Source of the DNA: Gemmatimonadaceae bacterium
Lineage (GTDB): Bacteria > Gemmatimonadota > Gemmatimonadetes > Gemmatimonadales > Gemmatimonadaceae
Length of the DNA: 52,422 nucleotides
Reading direction: 5' to 3'
Assembly: GCA_013817545.1 (NCBI GenBank)
Contig: JACDCM010000001.1
Span: 1 to 52,422, forward strand
Positions within the stretch are counted from its first letter, which is position 1. Every line of letters starts with the position of its first letter. The position numbers and the translations under genes are program-made. The notes under the pieces were generated by a model. It was not told the DNA's origin, searched no databases, and saw nothing but the letters and a program-made list of their open reading frames with translations. Positions 29,645 through 31,793 of the stretch are shown one piece after another.

Positions 29645-31399
29645 CTATCCGCGCGGTCGGCCGCGCCCGCCCGACTCGCGATCGCTCCGCTGGCGTGACG
29701 GTGGGGCTGAAGAACGCGGGCCGCCAGGCGACCGCTTTCCAGCATACGATCCGCTTTGCTTCACGTCGCGGTCTCGGCGTGGGGGTCCTGAATCGCGCGG
29801 TCGAGAGTCGCGATCTCTGGACCTGGCGTCGCGGCCCCCGGGCCGGCCCTCCCTGTCTCGCGGCTGAGCTTCGCGAGACGGCGTTGAGTTGCCACGTTCC
29901 CGTGCGCCGGCGTCACGACTGCGGGGTCGCGAGTCGCGGCCCCCGTCTCGACCACTTCGCTCCGCCTCTCGTGGTATGCCCGAGTCAATCTTGGCAATGA
30001 TCCTCCGGCCTCTGATCATGATTCCCGTCACGGATCCGACTACGGCTTCCACCACGTCGCTGGCGATCTCCACGAGGGCATGACGCTCCCGAATCTCGAT
30101 TTTTCCGATCTTCGTGCTCGAAATCCCGCATTCGGCGGTTATTCCGCCAACCAGGTCGCCAGGCGATACACCGTCGGTCTTTCCGATACTTACGAAGATG
30201 CGCACCATGCTCACTGGAGCGTCGCTCTGTGTCCGGGCCTCCGCTGCGGGTGGCTGAGGTGCAGGCTCGCCGGAGCTTAGCAGGAGCTTGAGAGCAGCGG
30301 CAGCGATCTCGATGCCGTCGAACTCGCTGAGCAACGGCTCCAGCGTCAGCAGTTCTCGAGCTGGGACGCCCTCACTCAGGAGGTGGCGCAGTTTGCCCCG
30401 AAGCGCATCCTCACTCTTCGCCGCGCTCTCAGTGGGCCCGGGAAGGGTGAGCGCCGTAACCGTTCCTCGTCCTGCCAGCAAGCGCAACGCCGGCAATTGC
30501 GACGGACGCACGAAAGCAAATATGGCAGGCTGATCAGGACCCGTCGCCGCGCGTAATTCCGTCCGCGAGGCCGGAAGCTCGTACAGCACGACGGTGGCTT
30601 CCGGTTTCGGGGGCGCCCGGTTCGCAACACTTATCGAACCGTCGGCGCCACCGTAGCCGAGTGCTCCAAGCAAATCTTCAACTTCTGCCTTGGCAGCATC
30701 GGATCGCACATAGATGGATGCGAGTTCCGGATTGACGTGATCGAGCAGGCGGCGCAGAGACGACGAGCGAGACGAGTTGGACACCGTCACAAAGCTCATC
30801 GACGCACCGCCACTTTCGCCAGCTGGCTCTACACCGGCGCGACCGGCCCGGCGCGCGTATCTCTCGATCAGCGTTTCTACAGCCGTAGTCGTGCGAGAGG
30901 CGACTATGGTTCGTGCCGCCTCCCTTGGCACTTCGGCCATAATGGATTCCAGGGCGATGATGTCTTCCGAGGCGATGATGTCATCCGCCCAGGCGATGAC
31001 GACACCCTTTATGGATTCCAGCTTTAGCGCGGAGCTACGAATCAACCCGAGGATGGCCGTGGAAGCCCCCGCCACGACTTGCGGCTGGTTCGCGGCCAAG
31101 AGACGCATGGCGCGAGGAATGCCGGTGATGGGGACCGTGCGAAGCGATCGATCTCCGCTGTCTCTGATGCCCCGCGCTACCGCGATAGCGGATTCGGAGT
31201 CTGCCGTCAGCACAAGCAACTGGATGGCATCGTCTTCGCCATTCACGCGATCGAGCACTTGCGGGAGAAATTCCGCCATCGATGAAGGGTCGAAGGGAAG
31301 AACGAATACGGAGTTCTGCCCGCGAACTACAGCTACCTGTTTTGCCGTCGCGTTGTCCTGCTCGCTGTCGTCCTGTCCCTTGGGTTTCCCGATCTTCAC
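29645..31399 (-). CDS. DEAD-box-helicase-like protein with degenerate catalytic motifs, a C-terminal DbpA-type RNA-binding domain and an Arg-rich tail
   Basis: The DbpA RBD is MVRIFVSIGKTDGVSPGDLVGGITAE...IEIRERHALVEI. The helicase-like core has WADD in place of DEAD and ASR in place of SAT, and no Walker A. The start is proposed at GTG 31399, preceded by GGAGGA. The ORF is open to ATG 31546, but that would overlap the divergent gene. Confidence 0.7.
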   Translation of the reverse strand: MKIGKPKGQDDSEQDNATAKQVAVVRGQNSVFVLPFDPSSMAEFLPQVLDRVNGEDDAIQLLVLTADSESAIAVARGIRDSGDRSLRTVPITGIPRAMRLLAANQPQVVAGASTAILGLIRSSALKLESIKGVVIAWADDIIASEDIIALESIMAEVPREAARTIVASRTTTAVETLIERYARRAGRAGVEPAGESGGASMSFVTVSNSSRSSSLRRLLDHVNPELASIYVRSDAAKAEVEDLLGALGYGGADGSISVANRAPPKPEATVVLYELPASRTELRAATGPDQPAIFAFVRPSQLPALRLLAGRGTVTALTLPGPTESAAKSEDALRGKLRHLLSEGVPARELLTLEPLLSEFDGIEIAAAALKLLLSSGEPAPQPPAAEARTQSDAPVSMVRIFVSIGKTDGVSPGDLVGGITAECGISSTKIGKIEIRERHALVEIASDVVEAVVGSVTGIMIRGRRIIAKIDSGIPREAERSGRDGGRDSRPRSRDAGARERGNSTPSREAQPRDREGRPGGRDARSRDRDSRPRDSGPPRRDRDVKQSGSYAGKRSPGGPRSSAPPSRQRSDRESGGRGRPRG

Positions 31400-31514
31400 A
31401 CGATCCTCCGCTTTATGAATGGCGCTCCCCGCGCGGGCGGAGTAAGATAGCAGAGAATTCGAGATGGCGTTCGGCGGGCGCAAGTACAAGCGTTCCACCC
31501 TTTCCCGTGGACTC

Positions 31515-31793
31515 ATGATCACGACGATCGTACTGATTCGGTGCACGCCTCAGGCGACCCCCCAGGCGGCGATTCGGCTCGCGGGAATCGAAGGCGTTTC
31601 CGAGGTCTATTCCGTTTCGGGGGAGTGGGACCTTGTAGCGATCGTCAAGGTGTCCGAATACGAGCAAATCGCGCGAGTGGTTACCGAAGAGTTTCCGCTC
31701 GTATCGGGCATCGAGCGCACTCAAACACTCACGGCGTTCCGGGCATATTCGAAGAAGGATTCAGAACAGGCGTGGGACGTGGGAGCGGAGTGA
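31515..31793 (+). CDS. Stand-alone Lrp/AsnC ligand-binding (RAM) domain protein
   Basis: MITTIVLIRCTPQ...IEGVSEVYSVSGEWDLVAIVKVSEYEQIARVVTEEFPLVSGIERTQTLTAF matches the AsnC C-terminal domain pattern. There is no HTH. The ORF is open from 31464. Confidence 0.7.
   Translation: MITTIVLIRCTPQATPQAAIRLAGIEGVSEVYSVSGEWDLVAIVKVSEYEQIARVVTEEFPLVSGIERTQTLTAFRAYSKKDSEQAWDVGAE

Follow-up and report, generated by a model that had tools for sequence, protein, structure and literature searches.

A predicted ATP-independent pseudo-helicase of DeaD descent, retained in the class Gemmatimonadetes

ATP-driven clamping of RNA is what defines DEAD-box proteins. Eukaryotes have catalytically dead members, among them Utp25/Def, a pseudohelicase of the small-subunit (SSU) processome with a role in ribosome assembly (PMC9539457). 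For bacteria, full-text searches of the literature found no description of a DEAD-box pseudo-helicase beyond a passing remark in a 2011 survey, where a gene of Gemmatimonas aurantiaca that encodes an RNA-binding domain (RBD) of the DbpA type but no DEAD or Helicase_C domain was called small and mostly that domain, with "data not shown" (PMC3093544). The subject here is a gene on the minus strand, at 29645-31399, of a 52,422-nucleotide stretch (the window) of contig JACDCM010000001.1 (assembly GCA_013817545.1), from a Gemmatimonadaceae bacterium. Taken together, the analyses make it likely that this gene encodes a working pseudo-helicase: an ATPase-dead paralogue of DeaD that acts as an ATP-independent dimeric RNA binder or annealer.

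Among the closest described systems, Hera, CsdA and CshA form stable dimers through a dimerisation domain, and the RBD, their main RNA anchor, supplies most of the RNA affinity; the dissociation constants (Kd) of CsdA for RNA are 0.07 uM (full protein), 28 uM (dimeric core) and ~1 uM (RBD) (PMC11850223). In the RBD of Hera and YxiN, an [IV]-G-x-[IV] turn binds guanine through main-chain amides, and the basic C-terminal tail of Hera binds double-stranded RNA (PMC3695512). CsdA speeds the annealing of RNA with no need for ATP, and its basic C-terminal region is credited with this activity; strand displacement requires ATP (PMC3590231).

The longest open reading frame (ORF) at the locus covers 29645-31546 on the minus strand and encodes 633 residues. 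This is the gene extent given by an earlier note on this DNA, and all peptides quoted there are found in its translation. The ORF stands, but its start is corrected: translation almost certainly begins at GTG 31399, giving 584 residues, because a GGAGG lies 5 nucleotides upstream and orthologues begin at the equivalent residue. The nearest homologues (98%, 83% and 69% identity) are 584, 576 and 573 residues long, with the gene callers' starts at the equivalent residue. Residue numbers below count from GTG 31399, and model confidence is given as the predicted local distance difference test (pLDDT). The features of the gene, all on the minus strand, are:

29645..31399, minus: pseudo-helicase gene, 584 residues plus stop, GTG 31399 start (ORF, orthologue starts, Shine-Dalgarno)
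31405..31409, minus: Shine-Dalgarno GGAGG, 5 nucleotides upstream of GTG 31399 (read from the sequence)
30824..31315, minus: degenerate RecA1-like domain, residues 29-192 (AlphaFold2 pLDDT ~90; CshA/DeaD RecA1 alignment; isoelectric point (pI) 4.9)
31277..31300, minus: former motif I (P-loop) site, LPFDPSSM (consensus [ML]-P-H-D-W-[AS]-[SA])
30983..30994, minus: former motif II site, A-W-A-D for D-E-A-D (117-member alignment)
30446..30823, minus: shortened RecA2-like domain, residues 193-318 (AlphaFold2 pLDDT 81-92; IVa and V lost by deletion, no arginines at motif VI)
30266..30445, minus: helices resembling a DeaD-type dimerisation domain, residues 319-378 (aligned to the PF25399 segment of the canonical paralogue)
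30212..30265, minus: variable linker, residues 379-396 (ratio of nonsynonymous to synonymous substitution rates, dN/dS, ~1.06; pLDDT <50)
29984..30211, minus: DbpA-type RBD, residues 397-472 (PF03880, E 5.7e-19; pLDDT ~90)
29648..29983, minus: Arg-rich disordered tail, residues 473-584 (pLDDT <45; R 27%, net charge +15, pI 11.8)

This is the domain order of DeaD: RecA1, RecA2, dimerisation segment, DbpA RBD and basic disordered tail. The comparison can be made within one genome. Another contig encodes a canonical DeaD/CsdA-type protein of 574 residues with all motifs intact and with DEAD, Helicase_C, DeaD_dimer and DbpA domains; the same genome also has a RhlE-like DEAD-box gene. BLASTP aligns the pseudo-helicase to its canonical paralogue at 24% identity over 524 residues (E 3e-23), collinearly, starting at motif I and stopping where the RBD ends. 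Compared by hhalign with an alignment of canonical DeaD proteins, the family scores 100% probability (E 1e-64) across 475 columns that take in the PF25399 dimerisation segment. The sequence also aligns to CshA (PDB 5ivl; E 4e-13). The full-length NCBIfam models for DeaD and CshA align to residues ~42-260, far under their family cut-offs, as do the PDB sequences of CshA, DeaD and MjDEAD to the same residues.

Analysis with Pfam detects one domain in the pseudo-helicase. PF03880 (DbpA) matches residues 449-518 of the long ORF at 68.6 bits (cut-off 25.6; E 4.8e-19), consistent with the intact RBD described in the earlier note. Neither DEAD (PF00270) nor Helicase_C (PF00271) matches the protein at E<=1. 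Across 56 family members, DbpA is found in 56/56, Helicase_C in 0/56 and DEAD in 13/56, all weakly. An AlphaFold2 model built on 56 homologues places RecA1, RecA2 and the RBD at pLDDT ~90, with a helical dimerisation region of lower confidence and a disordered tail from residue 475. Searched against the PDB with Foldseek, the model returns DbpA (7pli, E 2.5e-20) and CshA (5ivl, E 4.5e-19) at the top, with a second DbpA structure (7pmq) also among the top matches, followed by eIF4A, MjDEAD and Hera, over a range of E 1e-20 to 1e-13. The model thus has DEAD-box topology with two RecA-like domains. The full-length profile-profile alignment, the predicted fold with its Foldseek matches, and the phylogeny described below together establish descent from a DEAD-box helicase, as the earlier note had proposed. 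By these comparisons the pseudo-helicase belongs to the DeaD/CsdA-Hera-CshA lineage and is a paralogue of dimeric DeaD/CsdA.

The two paralogues place their basic residues differently. The canonical DeaD (contig C583, L001:1341-3065) stops 3 residues past the RBD and has no basic C-terminal tail; its Arg/Lys-rich segment sits between the dimerisation domain and the RBD. At that position the pseudo-helicase has a short neutral linker, and its long basic tail comes after the RBD instead.

The catalytic motifs were located by alignment to CshA (5ivl) and to the genome's canonical DeaD, including by hhalign. Canonical motifs and the strings found at their positions in the pseudo-helicase are:

Motif Q: canonical PTPIQ; region absent
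Motif I: canonical GTGKT; DPSSM
Motif Ia: canonical PTRELA; ADSESA
Motif Ib: canonical TPGR; ASTA
Motif II: canonical DEAD; AWAD
Motif III: canonical SAT; ASR
Motifs IVa and V: canonical QxxR and T-D-x-x-A-R-G-x-D; deleted, ~37 residues
Motif VI: canonical HRxGRxGR; LRAATGP, no arginine fingers

The earlier note had recognized the order of DEAD-box motifs in degenerate strings, and these strings do fall at helicase motif positions. Its readings of ASR for SAT, of a motif I without GxGKT and of a motif VI without HRxGRxGR hold in the alignments. For motif II it had given WADD; the motif is indeed lost, and the register was one residue out. The losses are shared by the family. In an alignment of 117 homologues, each of at least 450 residues, the GKT/P-loop lysine, the DEAD glutamate, SAT, motif V and HRxGRxGR are found in 0/117, none has a canonical Walker A or DEAD motif, and the gap over motifs IVa and V is present in all 117. 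What replaces the motifs is itself conserved: [ML]-P-H-D-W at motif I (P in 113/117, D in 111/117); A-W-x-D at motif II (A in 113/117, W and D each in 116/117); an arginine after the former GG loop, invariant in 117/117; and L-Y-D-L-P at motif Va, with L and P in 117/117. The residues that contact RNA in canonical proteins (Thr and Arg of motif Ia, Arg of motif Ib) are replaced by Asp, Ala or Glu, and RecA1 is acidic, with a pI of 4.9.

Because every nucleotide-binding and catalytic motif is absent in all 117 homologues, ATPase capacity is judged to be lost. By alignment, the pseudo-helicase has none of the enzymatic motifs that characterize functional DEAD-box (superfamily 2, SF2) helicases. 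With the ATP motifs Q, I, II, III and VI replaced or missing, IVa and V deleted, and the RNA contacts of Ia and Ib replaced, ATP-driven unwinding should be impossible for this protein. One alternative is that the protein is still an enzyme, either a non-canonical ATPase/helicase that uses other residues or one that takes another nucleotide or ligand in a remodelled cleft. The former ATP cleft does contain new, strongly conserved residues (P-H-D-W and A-W-x-D) that could form a different pocket, and basal relatives have a P-loop-like motif I, with GKT in 2/9 sampled. The P-loop lysine, the catalytic glutamate, the adenine reader of the Q motif and the arginine fingers are, however, absent and motif V is deleted in the window protein and its 117 homologues, and no RecA-type ATPase is known to work lacking all of these. 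A retained enzymatic activity is therefore highly improbable.

Selection on the gene was measured as Nei-Gojobori dN/dS between the window gene and its 83% and 69% orthologues, with the following values (83% first, 69% second):

RecA1: 0.20 and 0.14
RecA2: 0.23 and 0.13
Dimerisation segment: 0.13 and 0.07
RBD: 0.04 and 0.09
Tail: 0.24 and 0.37
18-residue linker: 1.06; second comparison saturated
Neighbouring genes tdk, coaE and RAM: 0.04-0.07

Purifying selection thus acts on the dead core, though more loosely than on the housekeeping neighbours. The linker evolves neutrally and serves as an internal control. Sequencing error and local decay are excluded by the recurrence of the same motif loss in all 117 homologues together with purifying selection on the dead core. 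This bears directly on the alternative of a decaying pseudogene or assembly artefact, for which the loss of all motifs and branches ~3-5 times longer than those of canonical DeaD could be cited. The ORF is intact and has a Shine-Dalgarno; 117 homologues, assembled independently, show the same motif state; every folded domain has a dN/dS well under 1, against ~1 for the linker; and the gene is present in ~95% of class genomes. On these grounds the pseudogene or artefact reading is rejected, its probability being negligible. The features that mark a pseudo-enzyme are all found here: retained fold, lost catalytic residues, purifying selection and class-wide retention.

Among named loci from species-representative genomes, the best 80 of 337 relatives are all Gemmatimonadota metagenome-assembled genomes bar two with uninformative titles, some of these loci being labelled Gemmatimonas aurantiaca; among 1.84 billion representative proteins, 210 clusters match at E<=1e-30. 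One member is labelled Anaerolineae in nr, and its contig, JACMME010000149.1, is titled Gemmatimonadaceae. The JGI product name of many members (for example, records P0004 and P0008), 'ATP-dependent RNA helicase DeaD', is an over-annotation. The family profile matches 135/151 genomes of the phylum and ~126/132 genomes (~95%) of the class Gemmatimonadetes, class-level percentages being profile matches with motifs verified in the sampled loci. Canonical DeaD scores with this profile too, the copy in the present genome reaching 183 bits. Raw matches thus cannot separate dead from canonical forms, and motif columns were therefore inspected and a census of DbpA domains added. Inspection covered 29 loci in 28 genomes, with ORFs chosen by guidance from the hidden Markov model (HMM) and aligned to the canonical paralogue; the best match is the dead form in all 28. 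In the census of the 151 phylum genomes, most class genomes have exactly one DbpA domain, located within the dead gene, and the other classes of the phylum have none. A further DbpA domain outside the dead gene occurs in ~30/132 class genomes (~23%), and in 11/11 such loci fetched it belongs to a canonical DeaD.

This distribution weighs on the proposal that the dead protein pairs with canonical DeaD by way of their shared dimerisation domain, so as to modulate or target the active enzyme. Both proteins are encoded in the present genome; their dimerisation segments are similar and clearly homologous (EFDGIEIAAAALKLL in one, EFDIMDIAAAAIKLV in the other); and engineered Hera heterodimers with one inactive core work in vitro (PMC11850223). 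Canonical DeaD is nevertheless found in only ~23% of the class genomes that have the dead protein, and here the two genes are unlinked, on different contigs. Since most class genomes are without canonical DeaD, heterodimerisation is not a conserved function, and a regulatory heterodimer is a very unlikely account of the family.

In a maximum-likelihood tree, all 29 dead proteins sampled, which represent eight families, fall into a single clade (100/100). Its sister is the clade of canonical Gemmatimonadota DeaD (95/87); together the two group with E. coli DeaD and not with DbpA (99/91). Branching within the dead clade follows taxonomy, and degeneration is graded. Families f4-f8, which are basal, still carry the Q motif (PTPxQ) together with a P-loop-like, glycine-rich motif I (GKT in 2/9 sampled), and their motif II reads D-G-A-A or similar. 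The order that contains this genome has lost both the Q motif and the P-loop-like motif I; its motif II reads A-W-P-E in families f2 and f3 and A-W-x-D in f1. As part of the explanation considered probable as a whole, the pseudo-helicase would go back to a gene duplication in the common ancestor of the Gemmatimonadetes, its capacity to bind and hydrolyse ATP being lost afterwards.

The dimerisation segment, which carries a near-invariant EPLL..[FY]DGIEIAAAAL, is among the most conserved parts of the family. In members that have an RBD, no domain is more tightly constrained, and its [IV]-G-[KR]-[IV] turn is intact (G in 117/117). The tail of the window protein has 112 residues (R 27%, G 16%, S 15%, P 12%, D 10%; net charge +15, pI 11.8), matching the R/D/S/G/P-rich tail of roughly 110 residues in the earlier note, and a tail of at least 30 residues is present in 111/117 homologues (28% R, 18% G).

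Retention of the RBD, the dimerisation segment and the basic tail, taken with the published data on DeaD/CsdA modules (PMC11850223, PMC3590231), makes an ATP-independent RNA-binding or chaperone role the most likely function, and this is the role predicted here. If so, the mechanism would involve: dimer formation through the retained dimerisation segment; ATP-free binding of RNA by two RBDs and two Arg-rich tails; and action as an RNA tether, annealer or chaperone, representing the ATP-independent half of DeaD/CsdA. By descent, precursors of ribosomal RNA or structured mRNAs would be the likeliest targets. A role as a rigid scaffold or a surface for docking is probable for the dead core, whose former ATP cleft would have been remodelled around the conserved tryptophan. 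The simplest reading would be subfunctionalisation, in which the dead paralogue keeps dimeric, multivalent RNA binding, tethering and annealing.

Several observations weigh against this reading. The surface through which a canonical core binds RNA is now acidic, and clamping of RNA by the core is unlikely. The dimer is predicted from sequence: the segment lines up with the part of the canonical paralogue that PF25399 detects, and Pfam DeaD_dimer itself matches 3/56 members, weakly. Nothing about function emerges from the gene context, which consists of the unrelated housekeeping genes tdk, coaE and gcvH. Branches of dead proteins exceed canonical ones 3-5-fold in length, making long-branch attraction possible; the motif-V deletion they share and the tree's agreement with taxonomy speak for a single origin rather than a tree artefact. 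Finally, the RBD is lost in 11/30 Gemmatimonadaceae genomes in which the dead core and dimerisation segment persist. The core must therefore be under selection for a role of its own, unexplained by tethering through the RBD.

The loss of the RBD is confirmed in two genomes (G010 and G074), where the dimerisation-type helices lead directly to a tail of RGG/FRG repeats. It probably happened more than once, because the tree pairs an RBD-less member with a sister that has the domain. One RBD-less pseudo-helicase has no Pfam match at all. The remaining RBD-less genomes are G029, G052, G072, G084, G085, G088, G089, G091 and G099. From these comparisons, the invariant module consists of the dead core, the dimerisation-type helices and the Arg-rich tail.

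A persistent core could also belong to a protein-interaction adaptor, in which the dead core docks an active DEAD-box helicase, a degradosome ribonuclease or the ribosome, while the RBD and tail do no more than bring in RNA or can be dispensed with. Consistent with this proposal, the core and dimerisation segment are the sole module retained in every lineage, including those without the RBD; the core remains under selection, yet its RNA contacts are now acidic or neutral; and it has gained near-invariant residues of surface type, R96 and the R183-R184 pair in ERYARRA. A canonical DEAD-box gene also lies ~3 kb away in 3/3 genomes of family f7. There are precedents in RhlB and CshA, whose helicase cores mediate binding to RNase E and RNase Y. 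Against it, no partner gene is conserved adjacent across the class, and the Arg-rich tail, present in nearly all members, points to nucleic-acid binding in any case. As a full account of the protein the adaptor is unlikely, though it overlaps the ATP-independent RNA-binding explanation and is compatible with it.

The two genes that flank the pseudo-helicase are:

28997..29626, minus: tdk, thymidine kinase (PF00265, E 8.7e-50), 18 nucleotides downstream of the pseudo-helicase on the same strand
31515..31793, plus: divergent stand-alone RAM-domain gene, ~92 residues (orthologue called at 92 residues), with PF01037 as its sole domain

The pseudo-helicase and tdk are probably co-transcribed, and the order pseudo-helicase, tdk, coaE, gcvH is kept in 16/17 sampled genomes of the order. 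A sigma-70-like site on the minus strand at 29617-29644 (TTCAGA, 16 nucleotides, TATACT, with an upstream TG) spans all 18 nucleotides that separate the stop of the pseudo-helicase from the tdk start, and extends into the first tdk codons; it may be an internal tdk promoter or a chance occurrence. On the other side, the pseudo-helicase and the RAM gene share a 115-nucleotide intergenic region, in which a scan for consensus promoters found nothing. The divergent pairing with a RAM-domain gene, pointed out in the earlier note, is real, and the link it implied is weak: the RAM gene is near the pseudo-helicase in 10/10 Gemmatimonadaceae genomes, with 0.7-2 kb of other DNA between them in several genera, and is not next to it in the sister family. 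Coupling to the RAM gene as a general feature is rejected, the pairing being limited to Gemmatimonadaceae. Between the RAM gene and sbcD, two further neighbours are conserved in several Gemmatimonadaceae genomes: a 347-residue protein at 31939-32982 (minus), with no Pfam match, and a 299-residue protein at 33114-34013 (plus), whose orthologues match DUF6263.

In family f7, none of the neighbours tdk, coaE, gcvH and RAM is shared in three genomes. There, a canonical DEAD-box gene without an RBD (433-444 residues) lies ~3 kb from the dead paralogue in 3/3 genomes (G061, G079 and G141; L060-L062), with GKT, DEAD, SAT and HRxGRxGR all intact. This proximity could be a hint of functional pairing in that lineage.

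If the ATP-independent reading is correct, the non-catalytic activities of DeaD-type proteins (tethering, annealing and scaffolding) can be a selected function alone, and a dead family has been kept class-wide more faithfully than its active parent. It would also correct a widespread annotation error, namely the JGI product name given above, and cultured Gemmatimonas together with a graded natural series would make a tractable system for pseudo-enzyme evolution. A stronger version, offered tentatively and with the balance somewhat against it, is that the dead copy of DeaD and not the live enzyme is indispensable in the class, as its main DbpA-RBD protein: a dimeric annealer or tether, possibly a condensate scaffold through its RGG tail, in ribosome biogenesis or RNA turnover. 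If this were true, the dead copy would have been kept in ~95% of genomes after an ancient duplication, with active DeaD lost in ~3/4. The series from Q-motif/P-loop-like forms through A-W-P-E to A-W-x-D, some without the RBD, would then be a natural record of a helicase becoming a pseudo-helicase.

E. coli DbpA and B. subtilis YxiN have the RBD family PF03880 in common with the pseudo-helicase, and DbpA is its top Foldseek match (7pli, 7pmq). Unlike it, they are active ATPases and monomeric, without the dimerisation domain and the long basic tail, and the tree places DbpA apart from the group of DeaD and the pseudo-helicase. The RBD of DbpA and YxiN is specific for hairpin 92 of 23S rRNA. With E. 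coli DeaD/CsdA, Thermus Hera and Geobacillus/Bacillus CshA, the pseudo-helicase is a true homologue of the same domain order, which retains the dimerisation-segment motif, the DbpA RBD with its [IV]-G-x-[IV] turn and the Arg-rich tail. It differs from them in that motifs Q, I, II, III and VI are replaced or missing, IVa and V are deleted, and the Ia and Ib RNA contacts have become Asp, Glu or Ala. Utp25/Def likewise combines a DEAD-box fold, vestigial motifs and a disordered accessory region, retained under selection (PMC9539457). Its origin is independent, eukaryotic and nucleolar; it has no DbpA RBD or dimerisation domain, and it keeps motif Ia. Utp25 is thus the closest conceptual precedent, demonstrating that a dead DEAD-box scaffold can be essential.

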